64,000 bases of DNA from an uncultured Planctomycetia bacterium (GTDB lineage Bacteria; Omnitrophota; Gorgyraeia; 2-02-FULL-51-18). The notes under the pieces were generated by a model, which was not told the DNA's origin, did no database searches, and saw nothing but the letters and a program-made list of their open reading frames with translations. How positions within the stretch are numbered: position 1 is the stretch's first letter; the number at the start of each line of letters is the position of its first letter. This document shows, one piece after another, positions 1 to 60,100 of this stretch. Location: contig CAZSGP010000005.1 of NCBI GenBank assembly GCA_964606485.1, positions 139,649 through 203,648 of the forward strand. The letters run 5' to 3'. The position numbers and the translations under genes are program-made.

Positions 1-3000
1 TCCCTAATATGAGTTGGCCATCCTCATTAAAAGGTTGCGACGTTCGTATTCGTCTTTGTAATGACTTTTTTTGAGAATAGGTTTTCCGAAAGATGTCCTT
101 TCCAAAAAATGTTTCAAACTTCTCTTTTTCGGCGGTGGCTATGCTTTTAAGATCGCGCTCCAGGTTCCAAAAAACTTCTTTTGAAATTCCAACGGCACTC
201 GCGGACTCAGCCAAAGACATATCAAGAATGTTCCGATAAAGCCTTATTCTCTGCCCGGTTGTTGTCGTTTTTTCTAAAAGCTCCTCAAAAGGCATCCCGC
301 CATATTTAGAGGCCAGAACCGCCCATTGTGTGAACCGCAAATTCCTTTTTTTTGGGCCGCCTTTTTTTTCGTGTACCGCTACACAGTTGCCGGTTTGGAG
401 ACACACTTTAAAGCCAAGCGAGAGATCATTTTCATCGAGCGGATAAATCAATACCTCTTGATCTGTAAAATAACGGCCCAACCGATAACTTCTTCCCTCT
501 ACTAAAAAGCGCCCGGAAAGCCCTCGAGTCCTCACGTGAATCGGAAAGCTTTTCGCTTTAGGCTCTGCCGGCGGCTCAATGGGCATGTACTCCACCTTAA
601 AATATTGATTCACAGCACTTCGAATGTCGTCGGCAACCTTGACCGCGCGCCCGCTCTCAGCCTGCTCCCAGCGCTTAGGGCTAATTCCAAGCTTCTTGGA
701 AAATTCTGAAATCGACAGCGCTTCCGAAGCTCTCAATACAGCCAATCTTTTATGCGGCTCGACGGCTTCTGCCAATGCTTGGTCAAATGTTTTAGGGTGA
801 AAGGCCGCGTAATGCCTGCCTTCCGGCGTTAATTTGACTGAGTTTTTGTTTCTTCGAATAGTACCGATCCATTCTCCCCCAAGAAACACCTTTAAATTTG
901 AAGCGACTCTGACGAAAGTTCCAAAAAATTCCTTTCGTAGATAAATGTTCCGATCCCTAAATGAAAAATCTCCGTTTTTATTTACTTTTCTTTCAGCGGG
1001 CTGGCTTTGAAGTCTCGCGCCGTTCCTCCAAGCCAGTGTGGTTTTATTTTTTAGAGATGCGTCCAAGAAGGTGTCAACGCCTTCACTCTGAACACTGATT
1101 CGGTGACTGATTTCGCCGCTTGCCGCTTTGCGGCGGTGAAATTCGATTGCAAAACGCTGCCTTAGATTCCGCTCGTCATTTTCTACCGAGTTATAGGATT
1201 CATCCAAATAATCCACCTTGAATTGCAGATTCTTAGATTCAAATCCCTCTCTATTTAATTGATCGACGATGTATTCCACGTGTTCCCGAAGGCTATTTTT
1301 AGAGCCCTCGGCATCGATAAAAATATGCCCCAATCCAAAAGACACTTCCCCATTTTTTAGCGCTCTCACCGCCACGCCGGTGCAGGTGTTTAAAAAGTTC
1401 GTCTCCAATTTCACACCTGGAAACCGCCGCTCGCTAAAAAGCGCAAAATTAGGCGCTTTGACCTCAACCTCGTTGCCCAATCGAGTCACAGAAAAGGGGT
1501 ACTCCTCAAACTCGGCGGACGCCGGGAAAAGAAACACTCCCTCGGTTGTGGGAGTTACAAGACTTGGCTCATAATTTATATCATCGCGAGACTTGGCTAA
1601 ACGCGCGGCATCGGGAAGCGCCTTCGCCTCTTTCATAAAATCGGCATTCGAAATATTTTCAAGCGTACGCATGGAATGCGCAGAGCCGAGACCCGGAATC
1701 ATCGTCAACTTTTGGCCGAGCAGAATTTTTTCATAACGTTTAAGATTCGTTTCTTGCAAAACCTGCGGCGTTACGACAATGTACGAAATATTTTTCTTTC
1801 TCAGCAGTTCCTTTAGATTCTGCGTGTGGTAGCCCCCCGTAATCAAAACCGACAGCAACGGGTCCTGCCGGCGGTTGTCCGTTCGAAAACCACCTTCGGT
1901 GTTTTCGAGACGGACACCTACCGCCGTCACCCGTTGCTTTTCGATTTGACTCAGCATATTCTCTACAAATTTCTCATCGCGCAACTTCGTGAGCTTATAA
2001 AAATCTTCTGCGTTTTGAATTGCCGCCTCATAGTCGTCTTTTAAAAATAAAGCGTTCTCTGCCGGTAAGCTAAACTCCATTAACTTCTGATTTAAAAAGC
2101 CGGTTAAATACCGGATGTCATGTGACTTTGTATCAACGCAGAAACGCTTGAAGTCACGCGCTGAGAGAGAAAGATCCAAAAGATGTTTCAGCGTGCAAAG
2201 CGCGAGATCCGTCTCGATCAAGACGCGTTCATCACGCGATGCGGCAAGCTTTTCAAATAACTCTTGCTCCAAAAGACCTTGTTCTTCCAAAATTTTTCCT
2301 CCATCCATCCGTCTTAGTTTCCGATGTGCTAATCGAGGTTCACTTTTTATGAGCTTTTCAAAGTTTTGAAGATGGGGGTAAGAAAGCAGAGAGACCCCGT
2401 TATCTTGGGCACACAGGATGAGACTCTCCAAGTATGCGCTCGCTTTTAAATCACCTCTAGCGCACTGCTCTTTTTTTTCATCTAACTCCGAAAGTTTTGG
2501 ATTATAAATTCGCTTTTTTAGACTGCGCGCCGTTAAAAGTGCGCGATCGAGATATTCTTTAAACTCTTGCCGCTTGCTCGCCGCACGGCGGTAAATCTTT
2601 AAAGACTGCTCGTACAATGCTCGGTCTTCCACTCCCCACAGTGGAAAGGTCCGGTCGGAAGTGAGCTGAAGATATTCTTCGCCGTGAAGCACGCCGTTCT
2701 TAAGAAATTTTTCAGCGAACCGCTCTAAGTCTCTTTGATTTTTTTGAGTTCTCAGAAAGGAGAGGGAGCTCTCCCCAAATCCCCCTTCAACAAAAATTGG
2801 AGATTTAGAATATTTATTTAAAATGATTTCGAGCGTTTTGGATAAATTTTTCTGTGCAGAGGGGTTAGCGTGTGCGTCTTGAATCAGTATGACAGTTGGG
2901 CCATTCGGCGCGCTCCAGGATTCACCGGTTTCAGCCACTGATTTCGGAAATTTAAGCCCAGACGCCACTGATCTAAATGACAGAAACTCCTGGGACTTTA

Positions 3001-3088
3001 TTTCAGAATCCGCGAAGCAAAAGGGCTCTGAAATAAGGCCCAAAATAAGCGCTAGCGAAACTATTTTTATTGGATATTTAAACTTCAT
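1..3088 (-). CDS. Giant secreted multidomain protein, partial (C-terminus runs off window start). N-terminal module paralogous to the N-terminus of the 4818-aa protein at 42674..57130, with HTH(XRE)-like modules further C-terminal.
   Basis: Hand translation of the minus strand from the ATG at 3088-3086 gives MKFKYPIKIVSLALILGLISEPFCFADSE (signal peptide), then VILIQDAHANPSAQKNLSKTLEIIL...FVEGG. This aligns with IIHIQDAHTNVSAQKNISAILENL...FLEGG of the 4818-aa protein. The frame was checked codon by codon and is open in 3088-3050, 1981-1826, 1051-1010, 781-661 and 301-2. No other ORF of 60 aa or more is reported on the minus strand for 1-3100. It is absent from the ORF track presumably because there is no stop codon inside the window. 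It contains one NGARLQS motif and XRE-like stretches such as LSISEFSKKLGISPKRWEQAESGR. Confidence 0.7.
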   Translation of the reverse strand, partial: MKFKYPIKIVSLALILGLISEPFCFADSEIKSQEFLSFRSVASGLKFPKSVAETGESWSAPNGPTVILIQDAHANPSAQKNLSKTLEIILNKYSKSPIFVEGGFGESSLSFLRTQKNQRDLERFAEKFLKNGVLHGEEYLQLTSDRTFPLWGVEDRALYEQSLKIYRRAASKRQEFKEYLDRALLTARSLKKRIYNPKLSELDEKKEQCARGDLKASAYLESLILCAQDNGVSLLSYPHLQNFEKLIKSEPRLAHRKLRRMDGGKILEEQGLLEQELFEKLAASRDERVLIETDLALCTLKHLLDLSLSARDFKRFCVDTKSHDIRYLTGFLNQKLMEFSLPAENALFLKDDYEAAIQNAEDFYKLTKLRDEKFVENMLSQIEKQRVTAVGVRLENTEGGFRTDNRRQDPLLSVLITGGYHTQNLKELLRKKNISYIVVTPQVLQETNLKRYEKILLGQKLTMIPGLGSAHSMRTLENISNADFMKEAKALPDAARLAKSRDDINYEPSLVTPTTEGVFLFPASAEFEEYPFSVTRLGNEVEVKAPNFALFSERRFPGVKLETNFLNTCTGVAVRALKNGEVSFGLGHIFIDAEGSKNSLREHVEYIVDQLNREGFESKNLQFKVDYLDESYNSVENDERNLRQRFAIEFHRRKAASGEISHRISVQSEGVDTFLDASLKNKTTLAWRNGARLQSQPAERKVNKNGDFSFRDRNIYLRKEFFGTFVRVASNLKVFLGGEWIGTIRRNKNSVKLTPEGRHYAAFHPKTFDQALAEAVEPHKRLAVLRASEALSISEFSKKLGISPKRWEQAESGRAVKVADDIRSAVNQYFKVEYMPIEPPAEPKAKSFPIHVRTRGLSGRFLVEGRSYRLGRYFTDQEVLIYPLDENDLSLGFKVCLQTGNCVAVHEKKGGPKKRNLRFTQWAVLASKYGGMPFEELLEKTTTTGQRIRLYRNILDMSLAESASAVGISKEVFWNLERDLKSIATAEKEKFETFFGKDIFRKTYSQKKSLQRRIRTSQPFNEDGQLILG
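1854..1938. repeat. 85-bp near-palindromic hairpin element, copy 1 of 3, inserted in-frame inside the gene A coding sequence
   Basis: agcaacgggtcctgccggcggttgtccgttcgaaaaccaccttcggtgttttcgagacggacacctaccgccgtcacccgttgct. The core is near-identical to copies at 31328..31412 (inverted) and 40247..40331. It has perfect 10-bp terminal inverted complementarity and a UUCG tetraloop centre. On the minus strand it translates in-frame as [26 protein letters not shown] with no stop. Confidence 0.8.
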
Positions 3089-3129
3089 AGGTATGGGGCA
3101 GACTCCGTCCATCTAAAATGATTTCCAAA

Positions 3130-3158
3130 AGTATACCCAACGTCTGTAACTAATTCAA
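3130..3158 (-). promoter_or_regulatory. Candidate sigma70-like promoter for gene A (TTGAAT, 17-nt spacer, TATACT, read on the minus strand)
   Basis: The reverse complement of 3130-3158 gives ttgaat-tagttacagacgttggg-tatact, about 40 nt upstream of the ATG at 3088. Confidence 0.3.
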
Positions 3159-3216
3159 ATTGATGGGGATATATAAATTTAATTAAGTTTAAACGGTTTT
3201 ATACGCGGTTAAGCGA

Positions 3217-3567
3217 TCAGAGGATTTCTTTGAGGCGCTCGGCGGGGCGAGCAAGAATAGCTTTGGAGCCTTTTTCCACAATGGGCCGCTGAATAAGATC
3301 TGGGTGCTTCGCCATAAGCGTCAGCGCTTCCTCTTCCGTGATAGATTTGGAGGAAAGTTCCAGCTTTTTATAAATTTCCTCCTTGGAACGGAAAAGCTCT
3401 GAAGCCTTAATACCCATTTTACGAACAAGCTCTTTTAACTTTTCTTTCGACAGAGGCTCGGTGTAGTAATTTACAGATTTAAAATCAACACCGCTTTCCT
3501 GAAGCGCTTTGTAAACCTGGCGGCAGGTGGTGCAGGTTGGCTTTTGATAAACAGTGATTTTATCCAT
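3217..3567 (-). CDS. ArsC/Spx-family thioredoxin-fold protein
   Basis: 116 aa. N-terminal CTTC redox motif (VYQKPTCTTCRQVYKALQESGVDFKSVNY), typical of the ArsC/YffB/Spx family. Confidence 0.6.
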   Translation of the reverse strand: MDKITVYQKPTCTTCRQVYKALQESGVDFKSVNYYTEPLSKEKLKELVRKMGIKASELFRSKEEIYKKLELSSKSITEEEALTLMAKHPDLIQRPIVEKGSKAILARPAERLKEIL

Positions 3568-4750
3568 GAAAACTCTTTAGTTTTTCGATGATTTGAAGCA
3601 AAGTCACATCCGGCGTGGAAGCCCCAGACGTAATACCGATATTTTTTAAATTTTGAGGCATCCAGTTTTTTTTAATGCCAATCGATCCGTCTTTGGGATT
3701 GCGGCGATTGATTTCATTTTTAGATAAAATATCATCCGCCCCCTCGATGTGAAAGAAATGAAGCCTTGTGCCTGGCTGCCCATGAGGCAAGTCAGCAATT
3801 TCCGCCAGATGCGAAGTGTTTGAGCTATTAAATCCACCAACAATTAAGAGAAGGTCTAATTTTTTTTCGAGTAATTTTCGAAGCGCATCTTGACGGTCTT
3901 GGGTCGCGCCGCAAATCGTGTCAAAGCTTCTGAAGCGTTTTTTGGTTTCTTCTTCCCCGAACCGGTCCCTGAACGCCTGACGCAAAATTTCCTGAATGTC
4001 GAGCGACTCACCCTTCAACATCGTGGTTTGATTGGCCATGCCCATGGACACCGTCGCACTATCGAAGCTAAAATTTTCGAGTGCGGCCTTCGGATATTTT
4101 TTTAAAAAATCACGCTCGGAGACCTTGCCGCGAATGACATCGGAAAGCTCCATGGCTTCCTGTTTATTTTCGATGGTGAGGTAAGCCCCACCTTCTTTCA
4201 CCGCTTGCGACACCGTCGCGCGTGTTTCCTCGTGATTGCGCTTTCCGTGCATGATTGTGAGAAAATTATTTTTGGCATATCCTTCGACGCGTTTCCAAAC
4301 ATTTACAATGGCACCGCAAGTGGAATCGACAATGGTGACGCCTTTAGCTTTTAAATTTTCAATGTCCCTAAAATCCGTTCCAAAGGCCGCTACAACCACC
4401 ATGTCGCCTTCTTTTAAATCATCACAAACCAACAAGTTTTTAGAATCGCGTTTTAAATATTGGACACCCTTCTCCCGAAGCTTTCCGTTGATGTAGGGGT
4501 TATGGATGAGTTGATCCGTCAAAAAAATCCGTTTTCCGGCAAACCGGTCACAGGTTTCAAAAACCATGTCGATGGCTTTATCCACCCCGTAACAAAATCC
4601 GAAATGCTCCGGAAAATGAAACGAAAGATCCCCGACATTCCAAACACCTCCGGTTTCACGGATTTTCGAAATATCGCCGGCTTCATAATTTTCGTGGTGA
4701 TGCTTAAAACCTTCCCCGAATTCGTGGAGTTTTTTGATCACATTGGGCAT
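3560..4750 (-). CDS. ispH: 4-hydroxy-3-methylbut-2-enyl diphosphate reductase (IspH/LytB), with an N-terminal extension of about 50 aa
   Basis: 396 aa. Contains FGFCYGVDKAI, HNPYI and the C-terminal LLIVGGFNSSNTSHL...SGASTP motifs of IspH. Confidence 0.8.
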   Translation of the reverse strand: MPNVIKKLHEFGEGFKHHHENYEAGDISKIRETGGVWNVGDLSFHFPEHFGFCYGVDKAIDMVFETCDRFAGKRIFLTDQLIHNPYINGKLREKGVQYLKRDSKNLLVCDDLKEGDMVVVAAFGTDFRDIENLKAKGVTIVDSTCGAIVNVWKRVEGYAKNNFLTIMHGKRNHEETRATVSQAVKEGGAYLTIENKQEAMELSDVIRGKVSERDFLKKYPKAALENFSFDSATVSMGMANQTTMLKGESLDIQEILRQAFRDRFGEEETKKRFRSFDTICGATQDRQDALRKLLEKKLDLLLIVGGFNSSNTSHLAEIADLPHGQPGTRLHFFHIEGADDILSKNEINRRNPKDGSIGIKKNWMPQNLKNIGITSGASTPDVTLLQIIEKLKSFHG

Positions 4751-4761
4751 AGCTAGAACTG

Positions 4762-5442
4762 TTATTCCTCTGAAATAAACTTGTAGCCGATGTTTCGGAC
4801 GGTATCGATGAAGGTCGCGGATTTGCCTTCGATTTTAGAACGAAGTCTTCGAATGTGCACGTCGACGGTGCGCGTTCCGCCATAATATTCATAACCCCAG
4901 ACCTTGTTGAGAAGAACCTCGCGGGTAAAAACGGTTCCGGGGTTTGTGCATAAAAATTTCAGAAGCTCAAACTCGGTATACGTGAGGTCTATTTTCTTTT
5001 CACCAATGCGCACTTCGTATTTTGAAACATCGATGATCAGTTTTCCTTTTTGAATAATATTTTTCTGATCGATTTTGTGAAGCCGCTTAAATAGATGCTG
5101 AATACGCACCACGGCTTCAGTGAGACGAAGCGGGCGGTACAACACTTCTTGGATACCCGACGGAAGATCCGCTTTTTTCATTTCGGCTTCGTCGAGAAGT
5201 AGCACAATGGGGATCTCTTGCGTGCGCGGCTCTTTCTTAAAGGAATAGTACAAGTCGATGAGCTCAGTGTAACTGGCCTTCGGGTTAAAAATAATCAGAT
5301 CAGGCTCTTTTTCAACCGCATCGCGCACTGCCGACGACGGCGCCGCTAGACGAAGGGTAAAATGCGTCTCTTTCTTAAGAGCATCTTTCAGCTCAAGCCC
5401 TTGTTTATTTTGATCCCCAACAAAAAGAATGCTACCAACCAT
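4762..5442 (-). CDS. OmpR-family winged-helix response regulator with a degenerate (pseudo-)receiver domain
   Basis: 226 aa. The C-terminal LTYTEFELLKFL...TVDVHIRRLRSKIE...NIGYKF matches the OmpR/PhoB DNA-binding domain. In the receiver, the phospho-acceptor position reads DLIIFNPK (Asn, not Asp), the conserved Thr/Ser is replaced, and YRPL stands where KPF is expected. Confidence 0.65.
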   Translation of the reverse strand: MVGSILFVGDQNKQGLELKDALKKETHFTLRLAAPSSAVRDAVEKEPDLIIFNPKASYTELIDLYYSFKKEPRTQEIPIVLLLDEAEMKKADLPSGIQEVLYRPLRLTEAVVRIQHLFKRLHKIDQKNIIQKGKLIIDVSKYEVRIGEKKIDLTYTEFELLKFLCTNPGTVFTREVLLNKVWGYEYYGGTRTVDVHIRRLRSKIEGKSATFIDTVRNIGYKFISEE

Positions 5443-42673: not shown

Positions 42674-45600
42674 TTAGGCCGCTACCTGTGTGGTGTGAAG
42701 CGCGAGAATACTTAAGATGAGCCGGGTATTAAAGACCTTTTCAGGTTCGAGTAACCTAAACCGGTTACCCGAAAAGTGAACGTCCACTAGCTTCTGGAGC
42801 AGTTCTGGAAGCGATTTTGGATCTAAATTTTTAGACAGCGCAATCACGGTCAAAAGATAAAATGCTGAGGAGGACCCATCCACCTCACCGCGCTCGACTT
42901 CGGCGTAAGGCGCCGCACTTGAAAATTGAAGCGCCTTGGCGCGATCCGGAAAATACAACGTTCCCACATTTAATTTTTCGTTTTCTAGTGAATTTAGATC
43001 GGCACTAGGCTTAAACGACAGTTTCACTCCGCTCTGGGATAATTTCTGCAAACGATTTTGAATGGATTCGGCTTGATCACTCGACGCTTCACCGTACAGC
43101 ACGAGTTCGAGCAAGCGACCTTTGACGTGATCAAACTCAAGCGACGAATTGAGAATACTGGTTAAGCTTTCCAAAGCCTTTTGTGTTTTTAAATTTCCAT
43201 TCGCATCCAAGAAAAGTTCCATCGGGACGGGGATTGTTCCCGTTTGACCCGGAGCGACTTTCGCGGAAATAGAATCAGCGACCGCTTTCACGAATGCTTT
43301 TGATTCCTCTATACTTAAATCTTCCAATTGAGCTTCAATAGAATTCTTCGCCTGCGAAGAAAGGCGCTGAGCCTCTGCTAAATCCGCCACTCCGCTTTCA
43401 AGAACCGGATAATTTTCGAGTTTAAAATTAGAATTTATTTCTGAAAGCGGCGCCGTGCGAATCTCAACCGCTTCGGCAGACTTAAGCGTCACGAGCGTTA
43501 CAAAAGCTCCTGTTAAAAGAGGAAAGAGTTTGGGGAATGCTCCGGCCTTGTGAGAGGCGGCAATGCGCGCGCCTGAAATTTTAAGCGGCATCACACTCAG
43601 CTCGGCATGATTGGATAACAAGTTTAACTGAAATTTAGTTTGGCCCCCTTCTTCCCGTAGAAATTTTTCTAGCCTTTTTTCGTAACCTTTTTTTGTGGGC
43701 TCGGTAATTTTGAGCTCTAGTTTTGTACCGGGATTCCTTTGGCTTGTGATGGTAATCGTGTGCACGATCCCGCTTTGAACCAGTCCACGAAGCTCGCTCA
43801 ACGTTTGGTCGAGGGTTAGATTGCGTTTTTCGGAAAGACGGGCGGCATTTGGGGTGTCTATAAGATTTCGATATTCATTACCAACTTTTTGCCCCTGATT
43901 GATCGTTCCATTGGTCGATGCGTTATCCCTAATCTGCCAAACTCCATTGATGAAGGATAAATGCACATGCTCTCCAGAAACACGAGGGTTATCATCCGTC
44001 ACAATATCGTTGTCAAAACCACGGCCAATCTTATAGACCGCCTGCTTAAACCCATCAAGATTATAAAATTTCTGATCTTTAGTTCTCCATAAAAATAATC
44101 TATATCCGTAAATTTGGTAGATGAAAAATTCGTTGGCCGCCGCCAGCGTGAAAGCCGGACGAGACGTCGAAGCAACAGGAACCGTTTGCGCTGGAGGGGC
44201 GGCAATCCGCATCGTTGACTCAGGTACAGGCCCAAGCCATTGTAGCGTTGTCTCCTTAGAAGCATCTTGCGCTAAAAAATTAAGGCTACAGTTGCCGTTT
44301 CCATTGTTGTGCACACTCACCTGGAATCCGTATCGAAATGGTTTTCCGAGTTCAAACGCTAAAGATGGAGCCGTCGGCCTAAAAGCGCCTTTATCATAAT
44401 CTTGAATATAAGCGTGTATGCCGGCACTGTCTTGTTTATACCAAATTTTATAAACAGCCGATCCAACCCGCACCCAAACGTCTCCCATAAATGGCGCATT
44501 CTGAATAGATAGAGGCTTGACACTGCGCGCCGGACTCTTCAACTCGCGGATCCTGCCAAAGTATTCTTTAAGCATTTGCCGAGTTTTGATGTCCTCCATG
44601 TCCACCAACTCTTCTAATTTTTCTTTAGCCTGAATAACCCTAATTTCATCTGGAGTCATCGCGACCCCAATAAACGATTTTTTTGTTTCAAAAAAATGAA
44701 CTGCGTTTAATACATCTTGCGCGGAGTATTGAAGTCCAAAAAGACTGGCGCGAATTTCAGCTGGTTTTAAAGGCGGATCGATTAATCGCAGGACACGCGC
44801 GCAAAGATGTGGGTCTGTTTCATCAAGACCCTGCGTTTTGAAAACAGTTAGAATCGTGGCCATGGCAGGCGCATTGCGCATAACATTGGTGACACCTCTT
44901 AAACCTGCCGATCTAATAAGCTCTTCCCGTATTTTTTCAAATTTATTCGCGGGATCCAAAATTTCCTGTTGGGTTTTTGGTCTATGCGTTAAAAGTGTTG
45001 AGGCAATCACTTTGAGTCGCCTATCCAGCTCTGCTGGTGCCAAATCAGCCAACCGCGATCCTTTAACCTTGTCGCGGGTAAAGCCCGTTTTACTTTGATT
45101 ATCTTTTTTGAATTCGATCATTTCTTCATATGTCTTAAGACCGGGCTTAAGGATAATTTTGTCTCGTCGTTCATTCGGAATCACAAAAATATCCCCATCG
45201 AGAATATGCTGTGAAAGTCCAGGAACTGTGAGCAACTCAATCGGATTTGCGACAACAGACTGATCAATGGCAAAACGAATGTAATAGTCCTTATTGGTTT
45301 TTCTTAAATCCTTCACCAATTCGACATATGCGAGTGGGGTTCGCGAAACACTGTAAAGCTTTCCTTCAAAAAATTGGAGCAAACCCATCTCCAAATCTCT
45401 TTGGACTTCCTCTGAGCTGATTAAAAATCCAGGAGCTCCTTCAATCTCAAAGCGCCTTAGGTCACCGGCCCATTTTTTAAATGCTTCTATTTCAATTTTT
45501 ATTTGTTTGGGTTTCGTTGCGGATTGAACGTGAAGCGCATAATCCTCTGGACTCATACCCGAAAAACGGAAATCCGCGTTGGAGCTCCCTACTACAAACC

Positions 45601-48600
45601 CTCTTAAGATGTCTTTGGCCGCTTGTACATAATTAACGCTAAGATCTGCATCGGGTATTTTAACGGGCTTGCCTTGATGGTAACGCACCCTATTGTCGAT
45701 AAAAAAATCGGAGTTAGCTTTTCTTAATTGTCTGAGATAGGTTTCATAGTCATTCGCAGATTTTCCGATGAGGAACAATGATCCATCGGAATCAATATCC
45801 AAAATTCCTCTTTCTAAGTCTCTAAAGGCCTCGGTGTAACTGGGTTTTACACTCCCTTTATAATCCACAATCTTTTCCACGAAGCCGTAGCGAACCGAAG
45901 AGCTGCTCCAATTTCCGCCCAAAGAATAATAATGTAAAAAGCAAGCGGCCGCCGACTCTCGTTGCTCGTTTTGCAAAAGCGAAGCTTTTAGCTTCAAGCT
46001 CATTCCCCTGGGACCGCTGGAATAATACTCTAACTCTGCATTCGTACCGACGACACGCAAACGCGCCTGAGGATGTAAGAGGTAACACCGGCCTTTTGCA
46101 AAGTACCTGAATACGGGCCACCTAAAAATATTTTTTTCTTTCGGGTTTGTTATGCTTGAGTCATGCAACTCATAAAATATTTTTTCGGTGTTGTAATCTG
46201 CTTCCGCTGAAAGCCGCTCTTGTGCGCCTGGTTTGAACGGCTCTCCAATAATGGCGCATTCTGCCGCATTTCTTAGTGCGATAAAAGCCCTGTGTGCCTT
46301 GCGGTTGGACGCTCTCTCGCGCACTCCCCGATTGGGCTCAGTAAAAGATTCAGGGTCCTGATAAACATCCCAATGAAAACCGTTGCTAAAAAAAACTTTT
46401 CTTTTGATCTTGCCTTTTGACACACACTCAAATTCCAATGCGATAGGATTGGAGGGCGAGCCATCCCCCACATAAGCTTTGCCGGACAGGACATTAAGCA
46501 CGAATTTGGTCGGAAAATTTCCCGCCTTTCCTCTGGGTGCGACGAGCAAATCACCCTTTTTATCTGCCGTCAGCCTGAAATTGTCTCGGATGGCTTTTTC
46601 ATTATTAAGCTCAATAACTAGGTCGCCGAGCGCTTTGCCATTTAAAATTTTGGTGTGGTCCGCCGGCTCCTCGTCGGTGTCAATGGAGTCTGACACACTA
46701 AGCAATTCTTCCCGCATTGTAAAAGCGCTTTCCATGCCAGGTAAAGGGCGCCATCCCTCAAACGCAACCTGAGAATAAGTCCACTTAGTTTGCTCAATCT
46801 CCAAAATATCGAAGCTATCTCCATTAATACTCAGCGTTCCATTTTTTTCGTTAAACAAGTAATCCGCTTGTATCTGCTGATTATCGGAAACGAGTGCTCC
46901 TAGATCGGTTTGATTCGCCTGTACAAAATTCAATAAAAGCCCATTGTCGTGAGGTTTCACACTGATAGGACAAATAAGCAACCTTTCGATTTTGCGTCCG
47001 CTTTTTTTTCCTTCCAATGTTATCCAAATAAGATTTTTCCCATCTGACGCTCTCACCCAGGATGAGTAAATCGTTGAGCTGGGAAGAGAAGTTAGGCGAG
47101 CCCCCTGTGGGGGAGTTGTTTTAACCTTACGTGCGTCGCTCGCTTTTTGAAGCACGCTGAGCTCGAACATCAGCTTAAAAAATACCGGTCGCACCAAATC
47201 GGCATTTTGACCCTTATACTTTTTTTTCTCCATACGTACTTTATCTCTGCGAATGAGAAGGGTTACGAGTTCTTTTTGATTTTTGCAATCCAGAACGCGC
47301 ATCAACTCCGACAAATCACTCGCAGAAACTCCATCTAAGCCCTTCGCTAATTCGTCTATTTTCCAGGGCGTGAAAGCTTCAATTTCACTTTTTTCTTTTT
47401 TCGTAAAGATACCGGGGTTTACCATCCAACGCGCTTTTTTATCGTGCTGGTCCTCTTCAAACCGCTTGATTTCGTCGGTCGAATAAAAAGATGAGTTTTT
47501 GTGCGCCGCGGCTAGAACAATGAGCCCTGTCTTCAAAACCGAGAGGGCATGCTCTTGGTTAATGAGTCCGCCCAAAACATATTGCTCAATAATTTTTTCA
47601 TAATATTCTGTAGCGTTGCTGTCCTTTAAGCGTCGCTGCATGGTTTCTTCGTGTGCTTTGACAGTTTCCAGCACACCGGGAATTTTTAGAAAATTTTTTA
47701 GGTCTGCCTCGGTTACACGGTAGCCCCCTAGTAAATATTGGTTCAGCAGTTCGATAGCGTTGGGCAAATAATCTGTTTTGCGCACTCCCTTTAAATCACT
47801 CATCAAATGTTCGGGGTTATAGTCCGGATGCATGAAGAGAAGAAGGGTGTGAAGAAGCAGCCACCGCCTGCCCGATGCTGTTTTTCCATCCCAGGCCATA
47901 GCATCCACGGCAATCTTGGCATACTTGGCTCTCCGATCGGGCTCTAATTCAACGTAACTCTGGTAAGCATTGGATTGCAGCGTGAGAATACTGATCTTAT
48001 CTTTGGCTTGATTTCCCACGAGCGCCATTTCAACGCTAGAAGCCGCATAAAACGCGTTAGGATTTAACGTAAAACCTTTCTTATCTTTAAGCGCTTGGAA
48101 AATCTTTCGCGTTAATTCGAGCGCAAAACCATCGTCTATCCGGTTGTCTACTCGAATGAGCTCTTCGTTGTCAAAATTGAACACTATTTGCCTGGGCCAA
48201 TTCTGGTTGTCATCAGAATCGTCCGCGGATCTACCCTTCACGTAAAGACGACGCGAGGCGGCCGTCACTAAAAGAGTGATATAGTCTTCCAAGTCGCTGC
48301 CCTTCATAAGAATTAAGCGCGCGCCTTGAGTATGCGCCAAAATATCCTTCACCGCGTTTTCGCGTTCTTTGGGATTGTCTCTTAAAGAAGAAATGTAAGA
48401 TTCGATGGATGAGCGATTTGATTCGGAAAAACTGGCTAAACGAGCGCCTTTTACAGCTTTAAGACGCTCTGTTTTCTCGGACGATGCTAATGCAAGGAGT
48501 AAAAATGATTTTTCGAGGGAGTTCTGCTGAATATCACGAAAGATCTCCGAGGATTCAAGCATTTGATGGGCATGATTAATCTCATCTAGCCCCGAAAGCA

Positions 48601-51600
48601 ATCTAAATGAAAGAAAAACTAATTGGCGTTGAAAAGTCGATTTGTAATCAATATTGTTATAGGCGGGACTAGCATTCACATCCATCCAGGCTTCGTCAAA
48701 AACATTCCAAGTAAAGCAGTCCATTTTAACAATGGCTTCTATCGCTGGGGCAGCATCTCCCGCTTTTAAATGATCAATTAAATATGCATGGTTACCGTAA
48801 CCTTGAATAAAATAATCCAGCCATTGGGCCAATTCCTTGACGCTGCCCATTTCAACGGCGGCCCATGTGTATATCGCCAAGGTTTTAGGATCTGTTTTAG
48901 AAATTTTCTCAAGCTCCTGCTTAATTTTTTTTACGCCTTCAAAATTACCACCGGATTTTGCCAAGGCCAATACATAAGTCGCTTGTACCGTCGGTTCCAA
49001 AGAACGGAATTCTTCATCCATCGTTAACTGCGCAAAGTACTTTTTTACTTTTTCTAAACTTGAGTCGCTTTGCACTGCGGCCAAAGTGAGTATCGATCGC
49101 TCAAGGACTTCGTTAGGAAAAAATTGATCATTTGAAATTACACGATAAATGTCTTCGACCCGCTTTTCAGCCTCTTCAATAGCTGTTTGTCTATTGGGAT
49201 CCAAATCTGTCCATTGAACAGAACTAGAAGAGTTATTGTCGGGCCTTAGTCTCCGTTGCTGCGGATAAGGAAAAAAATCTGGAATTTCGCCACGTTTAAT
49301 TTTTCTTTGGAGATTAATCCAATACCCGTAGCGAATGATATCGGGGTGTTCTTTGACAAAACTCGCACGGTACGCCATCGGAATATAATCAAGAAACCAC
49401 TTCGGGAAAAAATCCAACGAAACACCTTGGTCGACATCGCTAACAGCCGAAAAATATTCCCCCAAAGACATGCCCTCAGAGTCTGAGACGCGCGTAATTT
49501 TTGGGAGAAAATGCATGTCCTCCAAATTTTCAAGATCATCAAAATCGTACAAAACGACACGTCCAAAATGAGTCACTCCAAAATTTTTTGGAAGCGCGTC
49601 CATTACGAAAATTCCGGCAGCAGCTAAATCCTTCAAGCAATAACCCCATTCTAGGACAGCTGCTGTTTTCTTTTCTTCGGGAACATCGGGATTATCCAGA
49701 AAAACATCCAGCGGCACCAATTTACGCTGTGCAAAAACCTCCTTGAAGATAACCTTTCCGTCCTTAAGGATTATGTTGGATGGCTCCCGCTCACCTTGGG
49801 GTGTCGCGTGCTCAATCAACTCCTTTAAAAGAGCTGGGTCAAAGTCAGATTCTTTAAATTCTAGAACTTGAAGCGTTATCGGATTTAATGCGCGACCAAC
49901 ACGGTCCATCCCCTGCACTTTTCGGTACATGCGCTTTATAAATTCTCGGATATTAACGCCCCCCTCCTCTCGCTGAAGCAGGGATTTCTTTGATGTGCTC
50001 TCTCGCGCATTTTTGAAAACATACCCAAAAGTAGGAAGCACAAAAGTATCAAGAGCCATCCCCTTCACGCCGGTCGCCCACTGAAATTTCTCACCTGGAT
50101 TAGTCTCTAAATGATTCCGCAAATTATGGACTAACTCCAATTTAGCCGGATGAGCGAAACCAACCGCAGAATAAATGGATGAGGGGGATTTATTTGGAAT
50201 AATCGAATGGAGGAAATCCAATAATTCATGATAATAATTCATTCCGGTAACATGAAAATCAATTCGCGTGTAGCCAAAGATATTGCTAACGTCCGCCTCA
50301 TTCGTCAGAACCGCATCAACTGCAATCCCCTTTTCAGTCTTTACCAGCGCGATAACGAAAGGGACTATTTTTTTGTCTGTCCGGATGCGTCCTACTAAGT
50401 AAGCACCTTTGTTGCGAAAAAAAATCTTTTTCCATATTTCAATCGAACGAATGGTCCTAAAAACCTTTTCCTCTTGATAGCGGCGAATATCTTTCTCCAA
50501 CATTTCGGCGGATAATTTCGAGTCTCGCTCCAAGTTTTCATACGGCGCTTCCACAAATCCTGCATCTTTTAGAATTCTTGCGATCGTCTCCGGACTCAAG
50601 TCTTTGTAGACTCGATAATAACGGTGAATAACCCCTTCGCTGGCGTACTCAATAGGCGTATTGACGTCCTTAAAAATTCTCCGCTCTATGGAGTTAAAGA
50701 AAATGATAGCCAAATCGGAATCCGGTCGTTCGCCTAACCATAAACTATAAATTTTTTGTAACGCTTCCCACGATTTTTTGTCTCTTAAACGATCACCCAT
50801 TAGGGGGGCAATTTCCGCAATCACTTTTGTCAACGCATCACGGTATAAATTGAGTCGCTCTTTGGCATTTTTTTGGCCCTCTTCCCAGAGTGATAGCTCA
50901 AATACTCTCTGAGCTCTTGCTGTAATTTCGGCATATCTGGATTGGTACTCATCGAAAGCCTTTAAAATCAGACGAACGATATGATCCGGTGAGACATTCG
51001 AGCGCTGATCGGAGACATAAATTGGCTTTGAAATACTTGATGATTCATCTCCGTTACCTTGAAATTCAGGCCGTTCCGCCAACCGCGCTCCACTCTTGGC
51101 TCTCCAATACCCCATCACTACCGTGGTCATGCCGTCTTTTTTGGGATAATCATTTTGGAAGCCGTCGACGGATTCGAAACCCGCCTCGTTTAAAATTCTT
51201 AGATAATTTTCTTTTTCGATCAGATACTGGTCCGAATAAAGATGGGACATGAAATACGCGGTCTCGAGTGTAGAACCTAAGTTACGCGCCGCAATTTGAG
51301 GGTTAATAGAAAGAAGATCTATTGTCAGAAGTCCGAACCGAGATGAAAGACTAGCCCACGATTTAAAGTGCTCGTACAAGTTTTGCTCCAACACGCCATT
51401 TGGAATAATTCGACCGCGATGCGTGTAAATGGCTCTTGAATCGGTGCGACGCCTTGCCGCGGCCTTGCGGTCTTTGGGTATCACAAACGGACGGTTATGG
51501 TCTAAAAAAGAGCGGACGTGTAAAAGATCCTGGGCTTTTGCGTCGAAAGGAGCTAGAAGCTCGTTCAAATTTTTTTCATAGAGAGCAGGGTCGTTGATAT

Positions 51601-54600
51601 TGCCAAATAACACCTGATGGGAAATATCCGCTTGGACGAGCCGCTCGTGCGTAATTTGGCGCGCTTCTTCGTTGTAATCTGCTCCAAACACGCGAACTGG
51701 ATGAGCCTCTAAATGAAGCCCGCGCGCGGTTTCGTTTTTAATCACGCCGTAAATAAATTCGAGGAGCATGCCGTTTCCACAACCCATGTCGGCGATGCCT
51801 TTGGGCTGTTCGTTGAGTTCTGCTTCTGAAAGAGCTGCGTCGCGGCGTCCGAAAATTTTAATCACGTTTTCCCGAAGATCCCGGAAATAAGTTTCATGGG
51901 AATTGCCACTGCCTTCTACGTTCATGGGCCGGTTGACGAGAAGCTCTTCTTTGTCCGGACCGCGGCGGTCAAAGTATTTTTCAATAAAATTTCGCTCTGC
52001 AAAAAATAAATAATACAAATTTGATAATTCAAAAGACGGCAAGTAGGAAACAGGAACTCCATAAGACCAGGCCTTGGACAGCGCGTAGAGCCCGCGCGGA
52101 GTAAACGAAACGGTGTCGTCGTTTATTTCAACCCAATGAAGCCGCGACAAAAAGTTAAACGCAATTTCAAGGCGCCGAGTTTGCCCGCCACAATCTTTTA
52201 TTTTAAAAGGACCTCTTAAATCAATAAGACCCCGGTCGGCCTTTTTGCGGATTTCAATCATGAGAGGTCCGGTGAGCATTCCGATCACAAGCGGACCGAT
52301 TAATGGAAGAGATGTTGATTTTAAAATGGCGCTGTCACACAAAGAAGAAAATTCCGCAGTTTTAAGCAAGTCCGCGGCCGGCGGATCGCGGGGATTTGAA
52401 AATAAAAATTCATCCATTTTTTTGAGTGTGGGAATAAAATCCACAAATTTTTCAAAAGATTCCGCAACTCCAAACACTTCGCGGCCCTGTTCAGTGACTT
52501 CGATTGTCATGGCCCCTGTCGCGCGCTTTCCAATGCGCCTGACCCACCCTTGGGCTTCCAAACCTCGGATCGCCCCGTGCAGATAACCCATATTGACGCG
52601 AACTTTACCCTGGCGGAGTGTGCTTGCAATGTCGCGCACCGTTACCGTCTTGCGGGAATCGTAGGTTTCATTTAGAAGCTCTAGCACCTTTTCACGGCGA
52701 AAAAATTCTAAAGTGGAGGCAATGCCAATGCCATCCGTGTGCCTAAAAATTTGCGGCAGAACTTCTTTTTGAAGTTCTTTATTTTTTCCAATTTCATTGA
52801 GAATTTTTTTGTTGGAGGATTTGACGGGTTCTGCGAGACGGGCGCCGGAGCTGTAGTGCAAACCCAAGATTTGAATCCCTGGGTCTCGAACGATCACCGG
52901 TAATCCGTTGTTTAATAAATCAAGTTTCGTATGATTCCCATAAAGCTTCCGATTGGCTGCATCAAAAACAACCACCTTCTCTTCGTCGGCTAAGTGCTCA
53001 AAAAAATCTGCGAAGTGCTTGTCTCCCTTGCCCAACGTACCGGCGGATTCTTCCGGATTAAATCGAGAACTTCCGTCAACGCTCACAATAAATCGCCGTC
53101 CGTCAATTTTGACCATAAATACTTTGACTGAAGCGTTTGTCGAACCCAAAGAAACGGAGGACTCATAAGCTTCTAAAAATTTAATGAGCCGCTTACGAAA
53201 CCACTCGCTCACAATTGTCCGGTGAGCGTCTTGCTGAAGAATAGGGTCTTTGGAGACATAGTTGCGCAACACCGCCAAGGGATCTTCACGGACTTCACAG
53301 AGCCGGTCAAATTGGCGCAAGTATTCCGCAGCCGTAATTTTTGCTTTGAATACATGACTTAAAAGCACTGAAGCAGCCTGGTAACTGCCAAAATGTCTGG
53401 GACTTTTATGAAAAAGAACGTTCGCCCATAGAAACGTGTTTAAATAAGCTTCCGCTGAACCATTTGCCGGGATCAGCGTGTTTCCAGACCCAGGGACGTC
53501 ACGATCCACAACCAGTCCTTGTCTCTGAATGATGCCCTCTAGCCATACCGGCCCCACCTGCAAACCGCCGTTGACCGAGATATCCGATTCGGTGTATTCC
53601 GCAGCGCCCGTGCCGCGATCGGAGTCCTGACATTGTAAATCAGTGGCGGCAAACATGGTGACCTGCTCGGGAGTGCTCCAGCCCGTAGCGACTATCAGAC
53701 GACCAGGACCTTCTTTGTTCACGTCTTCGGCAATTCTGCGCAGATCATTGTGCATGTGCTGTGTGGTCGCTTGCACATTTCCAAAATGCACAACTTGAAC
53801 GCCGGCTTTAACCAATTTGCGAATATTTTCTTCGGTAAAAGCCCGGAGCCTTCCAGCTTTTTCATCCACCAATCTTCCGTAATAGCCCAGCACCAGTTGG
53901 TCCGGGTTTAAATTTTTAATCTCCGGATCAAGTGCCATGAGCTTTGGGTCCTGTGAAACGCGGCGCTTGGCTTCTTTTTTAATCGCTAAAACTTGGTCAA
54001 TCGTTGGCGCATCCGGATCCGCCGTGTCTCCAAAAAGTTCAAGGCAGATGTTTCTAAAAAACTCGTTTGAAATTTGGTGATTGTCGCCATTCGTAACGGA
54101 GATCAGCCGAATGTTTCGATCAATCGGCGCCACTTCCTCCCGATGCACAGAGCTCACGGCATTTGTTCCATCAGCTGTGCGCAAACCGCCGCTGGTGTAA
54201 TCAATATCCGACAACCGGTCCATGTACCCCAGCCACTCATATGGCACATCCCCCTTCATGACGGTTGAACGCTCTGCATTGGAATAACGTCCCCGGTTGC
54301 GGTACGTGTGAGTGGTCATCCAAACCAAGGCATTTTTAAGAACACTTCCTTCATGCTCATACAAAACTCTCTTATAGAGCGGCAACAGTCCGCACTGCCC
54401 GTCATTGGCAAATAAAATCGCGTCTTTGAAAAGATTTTTAGGGGATTCTTTCTTACGTCTATTTTCTAAATAAGCCGTTAATTGCAGGGATGCTTTCGCA
54501 AAAAATTCGGTGAAACCCTGCCAGCTTGCAGAACCATACTCAGGGCCATAGCGGTAAAGGAGCTTGGTGTAAAATTCATGCTCATCTTTAATAAAATAAG

Positions 54601-57142: not shown

Positions 57143-60100
57143 TTACGCCGCTCTCTCCGCCGCGCGAGCAACATTGGCAGAGCGAATTTGTTCGGAAATG
57201 GCTTTCACGAGTCTGGCCATCACTGTGCGGCCACCCACGTTAACGGCTGTTGTTCCGAAGCGATTTCCAGATCCCAAAGACAGACCCGCCGACACGACAT
57301 CGTCGAGTGACAACTGTGAAACCGAGCCTTCCACGCCATAAACGAGCCAGCGTAAATCTCCATCTTTCAAATTTGGAGGAAGCTCTTCGTATCCAATGTT
57401 ATCTGCGTTACGAAACGCGATCACCATTTGCTTCAGTGCTGAAGGATTCAAATAAGGATTTGATCCCGCTTTGCGGCGCAGGGCTTTTAGGAGCGAATGA
57501 GCTAACGTTTGTCCATCCGTCCTATCGAAACAGAGCGTGTGAACCTGCGTTAAACGAAGGTGTTCGATTTCCCGATCTATTTTCTCTGCTAAGGCAGTGC
57601 TTGGCGTGACGAGAAGAATGGGCTGCCGGCTTGTCCTGATCTTTCGAAGGGCATGTTGGATGCTCGCCGGGTCGCTCTTTAAATCGGCCGGTAAAATCAT
57701 GGGGAGAATTTCCGAGGGCGCTTGAAGATTCACCACGCCTTGCGCAGAAAGCCCGGAGCGCACTGACTGTAAATTGGCTTGATGAACGGTCTCACTCGAA
57801 GCAAACGTGTTGAGATCTGCGCGAAGCGCTGCGGCATTGGAAATATTAAATTCATTTGCAGAAAATTGAATCTCATTCGCCTGCGCAGAAGGAACTTGAG
57901 AAATTGAAAATAGGATTAATTTCCCGGCTAGTAAAATCGGTACGATGGCTTTTTGGAGAGACCCTAGCGAAAGCGCAAGCCGGGAGCCCATCTCTTCTTT
58001 GGTCGCGGCATCGTCTGTTCCTTGTTTTTTAGAGGCCTGCGCGGCTTGGCGGCGAGTAGCACCCTTTAGCCTTGCTTCCACTCGTAGCGCTTTGGACGAA
58101 CGCTCCATTTTTCCGGAATCCGAAAGACGGGAGCCTGACGTTGCTTGAATTTCAAGAAGCGCTTCTTTAAAATTGGCCAGATGGTCCATTCCCTTGAGCG
58201 TGCGCCCGGCTTCAAATTCTTTTCTGGCTTCGCGACGTTCCTCGTTTAATTTTTCCAAAAGTGCCTGAATTTTTTTGTCACCCTGAACAATTTCAAATTG
58301 AGGGTTGAGACCCTTATCGATCCGGCTCTGCAAGGTCTTGTCTCGAATCAGCCTGGGCTCATTTTCCTTAACAAAAACACCGCTAGTTACTTCACCAAAA
58401 AGAATAATCCCTTGTTTGTATCCTCCGAGTGTTTCACGACGCTTGGCCACGATTGCTTCAAATTCTTTTTCATCAATGGCCAAAATATCCAACACCCGGA
58501 CAATTCCCGTTAAATCTTCCGGCGCTTTTGCCAAATCAGAAAATGCTCGTTCGGCCTCGTCAGAATAAACAAGCCACAACTTTTGCTCATGCTCTAAAAG
58601 TGAGGCGATTTGCTTGAGATTCGAAATTTCAAAACGCCATTCTTCAACGGTACCTTTAGAGTTCACCATCGGCATTTGAGCTAAATGAACTTTGTCTTTG
58701 AGTGTAGCCGCAACGCGTCTAGCAATCTCTTCGGTCGGCACCGACGCGGGCGTTAACAGATGGATGGGTGCGTAGACATGATCCCGGGTTTGTCCAAAAT
58801 AAACGAGTGTTTCGAGCGGTTTCGGGTGTTCAAAACCATTTTTCTCGCGCTCGATATAAACGGTAATCTCCGCCTCCCGACCGTCCGGATGCGAGGCTAC
58901 TACTTTCTTAGTCACAATCTTCGAGTCTTGCGCGAGGCGTGCGCCGGATGGACGTGCCAGCGAAGCGTCGACATCTTCTATGAGACCCCCAGTTTTAAAA
59001 TAGGTGATAAGGCCACGCGGGGGAAATCCTACAAGAACTAAACTCATCAAAGCATCGGTGATTTTTTTAATATCTTGCCACGACTTGGTCGAAAAAGTAG
59101 CTGACTCTCGGTGGCCCGGTATTACCTGCACCGTAACCGTTGTTAAAATATTATTTTTATCTTGGGCGTTCTTTATGTCGCGTGAGACCCAAAACTCGAA
59201 ATCACCGTACGGGGATCCGGCGACACCCCTACTCTCTGTTTCCTGATCGGCGAGGCGGGCGGCACTGAATGTGCGATACATTTGAATATACTCCTCCGCT
59301 CCGCCACCCTCAATCCAGTCGGGGTTGTAACGGGCAACTTGCAACAAATATTCAAAATATTGATCCGTTTGCTTGACGTTCAAAAAGTCAGCAACACGAT
59401 CTAATATTTGCTGTGCAGAAATCTGTCTTTGTTGGTCGGCTTCTTTGCCAGTATTTGCTTCAAAACCATCCACCAACTCAAGCGGCGTTCCGTTGGCTTC
59501 TTTAAAATCTTGAAGCCCGCCTCGGCTTGTCGCAATGACAGCATCTAGCAGTAAAGCCGCTTCCTGATTGCTGATTCCACCGGGCTCATCAATGGACGGC
59601 ATGAAGAAAAGATCCGAGCCCGCACAAATTTGCTTCGCTAAAACCGGATCAAATTTATTTTTAAATACAAAGCGGCCCTGATATTTAGGGTGCGCCTCTA
59701 AAAATGTCTTTAAAAATTGTTCTTGTTCTTTTCCGAGAGTATCTCCCGCTGTCCCTAACACCGCCATCTGAACGTTCATGCCGGAATCATTGCGGGTATC
59801 CAAAATTGCTTCAAGCAATGTTCGCCCATCACTTAAAACCGTCGAAAGAATATTCAATCCTTTTTGCTTAACAATTCGCGTCACGACACCCACAACTGTG
59901 GCATTGGCGTCTTGAGCTAAGCCCAGCTCCTGCTGAAGTGCTAATTTATTTTTTTGTTTCCAATCAGCGAGCGCTCTGCCGTCCATTTGGGCAAGCGGCT
60001 TGGACGGCTTTACAAAACGGGGTCCTGCCAAAGCTTTTAAATTTTCCGGTCGATGAGACTCAGCTTTGATTCGGTTATAAACAGGAGAAATTTTATAACT

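Follow-up and report, generated by a model that had tools for sequence, protein, structure and literature searches.

A signal-led family of giant modular proteins in Omnitrophota with a putative TIKI-like head module and a recurrent pentapeptide separator: a candidate polyprotein system

Why would a protein that appears to be exported carry DNA-binding modules, and how is such a protein assembled? The question is raised by one edge of the stretch of DNA analysed here (hereafter the window), 64,000 nucleotides of contig CAZSGP010000005.1 (assembly GCA_964606485.1, positions 139,649 to 203,648 of the forward strand) from an uncultured Planctomycetia bacterium that GTDB places in the phylum Omnitrophota. 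A minus-strand reading frame, gene A, starts at position 3088 of the window and runs off its edge; two further giant genes, B and C, lie in the same window. Gene A opens with an N-terminal module (N-module, or head module) that it shares with gene B and with a very large family of proteins, and the tetrapeptide GARL, which the initial annotation mentioned in passing, appears from sequence to be the core of the recurrent separator between the cassettes of that family. We propose that these are signal-led modular proteins with a TIKI-like head, in which the separator would be a protease recognition site, that is, polyproteins; taken as a whole, we consider this proposal evenly poised between being right and being wrong.

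The reading frame itself is beyond doubt. Independent translation of positions 2-3088 gives 1029 sense codons and no in-frame stop, in agreement with the earlier claim that the frame stays open to the window edge, and the start of the product, MKFKYPIKIVSLALILG, lines up with the N-termini of its homologues. Gene A is missing from the mechanical list of open reading frames (ORFs) because the frame runs off the edge. The proposed paralogy with gene B likewise holds: BLASTP aligns residues 1-467 of gene A with residues 1-508 of gene B (30% identity, E = 2e-49), every shared motif named in the initial annotation reappears in this alignment, and the similarity ends at about residue 467, so that the same N-module does stand at two loci, joined to unrelated downstream content. 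The truncation and the absence from the ORF list could be taken to suggest a chance ORF or a pseudogene fragment. Such an origin has practically no likelihood, given 1029 stop-free codons, strong homologues, the retention of all invariant catalytic-type residues and a native GC content (0.448, the same as in the rest of the window); it is refuted by the open frame, the gene B paralogy and the family described below.

The initial annotation spoke of a family of modular giant proteins, and this family proves to be far larger than could have been known from the window. In a word-indexed search, 17 of 17 homologues match only residues 1 to ~470 of gene A and differ in their downstream content, which includes radical S-adenosylmethionine (SAM) domains, HEAT repeats and an intein-related domain; most of them are named as proteins of Omnitrophota metagenome-assembled genomes, and it is from these names that the analysis itself derived the taxonomic placement of the window. 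An exhaustive HMMER search with a 16-sequence profile of the N-module (cut-off E <= 0.001) retrieved 10,076 cluster representatives that carry the module, 6,878 of them at E <= 1e-30. Each of the best 150 representatives, with host proteins of 500 to 7,482 aa, has the module at residues ~2-520, these being the top-scoring sequences, biased towards those that resemble the query and perhaps not typical of the whole family. No Pfam or NCBIfam model covers the N-module, neither it nor the separator motif is described in the searchable literature, and no papers were found that link GARL to cleavage or Omnitrophota to the term polyprotein. The head module, found in more than 10,000 cluster representatives and marked by an invariant hydrolase-like site, is absent from Pfam and constitutes an undescribed protein family.

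The signal peptide claimed for gene A shows the expected succession of n-, h- and c-regions, and by visual inspection this succession is conserved across the family, with a basic n-region, an h-region of 10-13 residues and a c-region of the form [ST]-[FWYL]-A-[ATN]. Within the portion of gene A that the window covers, the leader is the sole hydrophobic segment, and no further convincing transmembrane segments were found beyond the leader in genes A and B. This pattern suggests that the proteins of the family are exported through a putative Sec-type signal peptide. It could also be imagined that the N-terminus is an uncleaved membrane anchor and that the protein stays on the cytoplasmic face, in which case gene A would encode an XRE-type regulator that is tethered to the membrane and freed by proteolysis, and other members of the family would form multi-enzyme assemblies in the cytoplasm. 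The nature of the cargo, with helix-turn-helix (HTH) units, AceK, SAM methyltransferase, radical SAM, acyl carrier protein (ACP) and receiver domains that are normally cytoplasmic, speaks for this arrangement; the basic residues, the short h-region, the conserved small-x-Ala and the lack of further transmembrane segments in genes A and B correspond to a cleavable Sec signal and make the anchor rather improbable.

At the opposite end, the family possesses a conserved C-terminal helical module that finishes in [AS]-A-COOH: Ala is the last residue of 115 of 156 proteins (69 finish in AA and 33 in SA), and the hidden Markov model (HMM) consensus of the module is ...FALKPLAKLAIDQALQLARLALRAVGSAA. 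The C-terminus of gene B (42674-42900, minus strand) ends in ...HTTQVAA, and gene B did not reach E <= 1e-3 against this HMM. A G-A-R-[LM] sequence lies within the last 20 residues of 23 of 106 members. The module could be a sorting, secretion or PDZ-ligand signal.

The second element that recurs throughout the family is the short motif itself. Gene A contains the single GARL that had been noticed, at residue 690, and in addition one AARL at residue 494. Compared with shuffled sequences, [GA]ARL is found 2 times in gene A (0.13 expected), 7 times in gene B (0.53) and 10 times in gene C (0.35); the 32 other ORFs of the window (11,323 aa) contain it nowhere, and the looser [GAS]ARL appears there once, as SARL. 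Among 138 further family representatives (455,000 aa), GARL is the commonest 4-mer, with 583 occurrences against 20.7 expected from composition, and the exact GARLA pentamer exceeds its composition expectation 220-fold. The motif is present in 93% of long members, and the spacing between sites has a median of 248 aa (interquartile range, IQR, 125-430).

The specificity of this motif, profiled by scanning GARLA one position at a time, is sharp. The first position accepts G (438) and A (131), the second A (438), S (44), T (30) and G (19), and the third R (438), with K seen once and not enriched; the fourth accepts L (438), M (133) and some A and F, with no enrichment of I or V, and the fifth A (438), S (100) and T (32). 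In a logo of 1,061 sites, for which the search pattern left the fifth position free, that position is 71% Ala and 15% Ser (2.0 bits), and the flanks beyond -1 and +5 hold almost no information. Synonymous codons vary freely at all four GARL positions, Leu using all six, which indicates that selection acts on the peptide and not on the DNA; a nucleotide-level origin of GARL, as a recombination site, an RNA element or the trace of a recent duplication, was rejected in view of these varying codons and of the unrelated flanks. Variants of the separator were encountered as well, with GARF three times in one member (P0006) and GTRL seven times in one long member that has no canonical sites.

The placement of the separator is equally regular. 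In genes A, B and C and in the family member P0104, no separator falls inside any detected Pfam domain, the Pfam output giving the best stretch only for each family, and the separators bracket complete enzymes without ever splitting them (Table 1). When family members were compared with one another by all-against-all BLAST, 24.8% of the high-scoring segment pairs (HSPs) started 0-40 aa after a site, compared with 9.1% in the randomised control (2.7x), and HSP ends accumulate 0-20 aa beyond a site, with the reservation that these HSPs are not mutually independent. The gathering of HSP endpoints at the sites implies that the cassettes are evolutionary units. The distance from the N-module to the first site is itself constrained, with a median of 62 aa (IQR 45-94), and measures 32 aa in gene A and 30 aa in gene B. 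In the tethers of P0018, P0024 and P0025 (~520-560), a semi-conserved '...(Y)AQSMARLAE...' lies upstream of the first canonical GAR[LM]A; this ARLA-like element might be an additional or a pseudo-substrate site.

The motif is short and highly specific, its flanks are uninformative, it lies between complete units and these units are shuffled block-wise; for these reasons we infer that the pentapeptide is a site-specific protease recognition site at which the proteins would be cleaved. The same motif might remain uncut and serve as a structural cap, a docking motif, an Arg modification site or a translocation pause within an intact multi-enzyme scaffold, an explanation that we hold to be possible and nevertheless doubtful. 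It has in its favour that cleavage is itself deduced, that an ARLA-like sequence within the conserved C-terminal helix (consensus ...QLARLALRAVGSAA) suggests that the motif can be helical, and that a 2026 preprint treats the giants as single membrane-associated polypeptides (bioRxiv 10.64898/2026.06.07.730766). Against a mere structural or docking role, the 220-fold enrichment of the pentamer, the choice of Arg and not Lys and of L/M and not I/V, and the empty flanks together make up the profile of an enzyme recognition site, and the cassettes are mutually unrelated and mostly correspond to complete stand-alone proteins.

If the separator is a protease site, the head module is the first place in which to seek the protease. 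The AlphaFold2 (AF2) model of the N-module computed from the family alignment (predicted local distance difference test, pLDDT, 82.8; predicted template modelling score, pTM, 0.75) displays an alpha/beta core with predicted strands at 52-58, 65-71, 98-106, 150-153, 412-418 and 435-441, split by a helical insert of ~240 aa (residues 156-396). Residues D71, H73, E101, E154, R370, G418, G419 and H421 are 100% conserved in 140 representatives, and each of them sits at the C-terminal end of a predicted strand. The TIKI superfamily is characterised by a parallel-sheet core with an essential 2His/2Glu set (Jang et al., PMC6254334), and the N-module presents the same order of acid-x-His, Glu and His as these hydrolases. 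Its D71-x-H73 corresponds to E3900-x-H3902 of RRSP, whose catalytic set is completed by E3930 and H4030, and the spacing of +28 between His and Glu is identical in the N-module (H73/E101), in RRSP (H3902/E3930) and in the His-Glu pair of Bcr135 (H85/E113; PDB 3B55) (PMC6254334). The resemblance extends over the predicted alpha/beta core with candidate catalytic residues at strand ends, the succession [acid]-x-His ... Glu (+28) ... GxxH as in RRSP and Bcr135, and an R-D motif ahead of the second GxxH. The best Pfam match of the consensus from which the insert had been deleted is Cofac_haem_bdg ("Tiki superfamily, ChaN"; E = 1.2e-4), in the R-D...GxxH region, followed by weak matches to DUF5694 (E = 0.011) and TraB_PrgY_gumN (E = 0.042); three TIKI-related Pfam families recur among the weak matches of individual members, and the top Foldseek matches include a single alpha/beta enzyme, Bcr135 (3b55/2rad). 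We therefore regard membership of the N-module in the TIKI superfamily as probable, and it is rated unproven because no single similarity score reaches significance.

Several observations weigh against this assignment. The Cofac_haem_bdg match covers profile positions 138-203 and scores 22.6 bits, below the cut-off of 27.7; the Foldseek match to Bcr135 is weak (E = 0.13, TM score about 0.18); hhalign against a TraB/YbaP alignment gave less than 1% probability, that alignment being shallow (effective number of sequences, Neff, 2.2) since the relatives listed were all close enterobacterial ones; and when the family profile and the core consensus were compared with PDB sequences, nothing but helical noise came up. 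No significant sequence or profile similarity of the N-module to any recognised TIKI family was found. Unlike known members, the N-module holds its large helical insert within the core, has Asp and not Glu as the first acid of the set, and is always N-terminal, behind a signal peptide and fused to kilobases of cargo. Even within the superfamily, esterases and non-enzymes are known (ChaN, PMT C1/C2; PMC6254334), alongside sequence-specific endopeptidases such as Tiki, which acts on Wnt, and RRSP, which acts on Ras (RRSP: PMC6254334).

The polyprotein proposal as a whole meets further difficulties, in addition to the query bias of the best 150 representatives and the interdependence of the HSPs. 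The connection between the head module and the motif consists of co-occurrence and a constrained tether only; some distant members bear the module without the motif; a conserved short motif could serve another purpose; and the boundary at the second separator of gene A is less certain because its fifth residue, Q, is atypical, about 90% of the family sites having A, S or T there.

Three features make the head module the leading candidate for the processing peptidase: its ubiquity in the family, its invariant site of hydrolase type and its constant tethering to the first separator. The sites might also be cut by a separate protease, either an Arg-specific or tail-specific periplasmic enzyme or an enzyme of the prey or host, with the head acting as an esterase or peptidase on prey envelopes or in secretion and anchoring in the manner of two-partner secretion (TPS) domains. 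TPS domains are conserved N-terminal domains located right behind the signal peptide of huge variable exoproteins, a layout that the head module recalls. The strict Arg would also be in line with cleavage at R|L by an Arg-specific protease, the module occurs without the motif in several distant members, and the TIKI superfamily takes in esterases and non-enzymes. This division of labour is nonetheless unlikely in our estimation: a 100% conserved acid/His set argues for catalysis over mere targeting, the constrained spacing from the module to the first site agrees with release in cis, no conserved neighbouring protease or transporter gene, nor any other conserved partner gene, was seen in the window or at the locus of the family member P0010, and there is no Pfam match to TPS or haemagglutination domains, the N-module being predicted as an alpha/beta core with a helical domain and not as a beta-helix.

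In the polyprotein proposal, each member would be laid out as a Sec-type signal peptide, a head module of ~470 aa, a short tether of 30-90 aa and a series of cassettes, domain- to protein-sized, unrelated and mostly orphan, set apart by [GA]-[AS]-R-[LM]-[AST]; complete members would end in the conserved helical module with its [AS]-A-COOH. The precursor would be made, exported by Sec and then cut at G-A-R-[LM]-[AST] into separate products, the scissile bond being either L|A or R|L, between which we do not choose. The head might release itself first and the cassettes thereafter. Much of the cargo belongs to cytoplasmic classes (HTH, an ATP-dependent kinase, SAM methyltransferase, ACP, receiver), so that the interior of another cell would be the most plausible site of action of the released products, which would be consistent with the predatory or parasitic lifestyle that has been proposed for Omnitrophota (West-Roberts et al., 2023; bioRxiv 10.1101/2023.11.21.568195).

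The cargo of gene A illustrates this puzzle. Two segments had been described as HTH_XRE-like, and both are reasonably supported by sequence comparison as XRE-type HTH units. The first, HTH1, lies narrowly above the gathering score of Pfam HTH_31 when the whole protein is scanned (28 bits against 27), HTH_31 reaching 31.3 bits over two stretches when cassette 2 is scanned alone, and it matches the HTH of Aca2 (PDB 7EZY) over 68 residues (E = 0.003). The second, HTH2, is below the Pfam threshold on its own (HTH_19/HTH_31, E about 0.06-0.075) and matches PADLOC HTH_VI (E = 2.4e-5), with SinR at E = 0.13. The initial annotation found such HTH modules behind a leader unexpected, and the surprise turns out to be shared by the entire family, in which AceK kinase, SAM methyltransferase, ACP, receiver and FHA cassettes follow the same type of signal.

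The rest of the gene A cargo is orphan. No homologue of residues 495-1029, or of cassette 2 as a whole, was found in database searches, no further Pfam or PDB matches were obtained outside the HTH units, and a single-sequence AF2 model of residues 495-1029 was unusable (pLDDT 38). Two candidate features were dropped: cassette 1 (NTCTGVAV...GLGHIF) as CheD-like, with neither Pfam nor PDB support, and an internal repeat of cassette 2 (a beta-rich unit plus HTH, twice), for which E = 0.3 and only the HTH parts align in register. The cargo of the family at large is sequence dark matter for the most part, arranged in cassettes of about 250 aa. Among individual proteins, P0154 has 4,893 aa, 22 separator sites and zero Pfam domains at E <= 1e-4, P0104 has 4,717 aa and only two Pfam domains, and gene B comprises more than 3,000 aa without a Pfam match.

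Table 1. Coordinates of the features discussed, in the window (nucleotides) and in the encoded proteins (residues)
Feature	Residues	Window position	Strand	Basis or remark
Gene A, first 1029 codons	1-1029	2..3088	minus	stop-free translation; frame continues past window position 1
Gene A, signal-peptide-like N-terminus	1-27	3008..3088	minus	K2/K4/K8, h-region IVSLALILGLI, c-region CFA|DS
Gene A, N-module, putative TIKI-like hydrolase	~45-467	1688..2956	minus	gene B paralogy, family, AF2 model
Gene A, D71-A72-H73, first half of putative 2His/2acid set	71-73	2870..2878	minus	D and H invariant; end of predicted strand 65-71
Gene A, E101	101	2786..2788	minus	invariant; 28 residues after H73, just past predicted strand 98-100
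Gene A, G418-G419-Y420-H421 (GxxH)	418-421	1826..1837	minus	G, G and H invariant; just past predicted strand 412-418
Gene A, separator 1, A-A-R-L-A	494-498	1595..1609	minus	motif scan
Gene A, cassette 1, orphan	499-689	1022..1594	minus	no Pfam, PDB or database homologue
Gene A, separator 2, G-A-R-L + Q	690-693 (GARLQ to 694)	1010..1021	minus	motif scan; Q rare at fifth position
Gene A, cassette 2, two XRE-type HTH units	694-1029 and beyond	2..1009	minus	truncated by edge
Gene A, HTH1	781-823	620..748	minus	Pfam HTH_31, Aca2
Gene A, HTH2	945-982	143..256	minus	PADLOC HTH_VI, SinR, sub-threshold Pfam
ArsC/Spx-family (glutaredoxin-fold) ORF, 116 aa, between ispH and gene A		3217-3567	minus	Pfam ArsC, E = 1.4e-18
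Gene B, 4818-aa product	1-4818	42674..57130	minus	reference for gene A BLASTP
Gene B, paralogous N-module	1-508	55607..57130	minus	BLASTP with gene A
Gene B, first separator, G-A-R-L-S	533-537	55520..55534	minus	motif scan
Gene B, six further separators	1429, 2014, 2895, 2936, 3343, 4429		minus	motif scan
Gene B, AprA_N + winged helix + MT2-type methyltransferase	1460-2005			Pfam; between sites 1429 and 2014
Gene B, AceK (isocitrate dehydrogenase kinase/phosphatase), regulatory + kinase	2053-2624			Pfam; between sites 2014 and 2895
Gene B, FHA	4366-4421			Pfam; next site 4429
Gene C, carrier-protein (PP-binding) domain	577-646			Pfam; between sites 561 and 654, 89-aa cassette
Gene C, glycogen-synthase-like GT5 + GT1	1015-1490			Pfam; between sites 958 and 1571
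P0104, receiver domain	2200-2293			Pfam; between sites 2185 and 2323

The genes next to gene A in the window have the housekeeping functions of a diderm bacterium (ispH, lpxA/C/D/I and bamA, together with purine biosynthesis genes). The start of the ArsC/Spx ORF overlaps the end of ispH by 8 nt, and a non-coding gap of ~130 nt separates this ORF from the start codon of gene A; a promoter-like site upstream of gene A was dropped, its score being no better than chance. Searches for the part of gene A beyond the edge, any C-terminal module included, by an IspH lookup, among relatives in genome contigs and with exact 44-mers against genome and metagenome contigs, returned no match. The frame of gene C (57143-64000, minus strand) is free of stops from the listed TTG start (63973) up to the end of the window at 64000, and gene C is thus also cut by the window edge; it may be longer than 2276 aa and have its own N-module further upstream. 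Pairwise comparison found no similarity between genes A and C.

In its logic the proposed system comes nearest to the MARTX and large clostridial toxins, which are very large secreted proteins made of strings of unrelated modules with short inter-module sites, and whose effector modules are freed by a built-in protease through autoprocessing. The MARTX cysteine protease domain cuts after Leu and before a small residue. This preference resembles a putative GARL|A cut at the separator. Unlike MARTX, the family described here has an N-terminal Sec-type signal and a putative protease that is N-terminal and of another fold, its site is far sharper, and its members number in the thousands, with mostly orphan cargo; genes A, B and C gave no Pfam matches to the GD-rich RTX repeats or to the inositol-phosphate-activated C80 cysteine protease domain, and no Pfam matches to a type I secretion signal were found in the giant genes. 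It may be added that MARTX cargo includes a TIKI-fold endopeptidase (PMC6254334). Viral polyproteins, such as those of picornaviruses and alphaviruses, which have an embedded protease, likewise unite unrelated proteins in one ORF and use a short, sharp motif with uninformative flanks; the present family is cellular and chromosomal, its proteolysis is deduced and its products would be exported.

The comparison with the giant proteins already published from Omnitrophota is the most direct, as they share the phylum, the great length, the signal peptide and a set of Pfam domains in which regulatory and metabolic types are mixed (methyltransferase, glycosyltransferase, receiver, radical SAM). Proteins of more than 10,000-30,000 aa with C39 or S8 peptidase domains have been described (bioRxiv 10.1101/2023.11.21.568195; bioRxiv 10.64898/2026.06.07.730766), and cleavage of the giants has been suspected, the cleavage points being stated as unknown (West-Roberts et al., 2023; bioRxiv 10.1101/2023.11.21.568195). 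Neither GARL nor the N-module is mentioned in that work or in the complete-genome survey (bioRxiv 10.64898/2026.06.07.730766).

The giant proteins of Omnitrophota rank among the largest known, and the lack of defined cleavage points has blocked both the prediction of their structures and the dissection of their functions. The separator is a strong candidate for these points and thereby offers a directly testable candidate cleavage map, with which any giant protein can be split in silico into cassettes for structure prediction. If the head module is the processing enzyme, it would represent a new bacterial autoprocessing system, with a logic like that of MARTX and different parts. The broadest version of the proposal, in which Sec export and cutting at G-A-R-[LM]|[AS] by an N-terminal TIKI-type peptidase would deliver cocktails of effectors into prey or host cells, is one that we put forward tentatively and with less confidence than the family architecture; if true, thousands of long and giant genes, each coding for a string of unrelated regulators, kinases, methyltransferases, carrier proteins and many orphans, would make Omnitrophota users of polyproteins to an extent without known parallel among cellular organisms.

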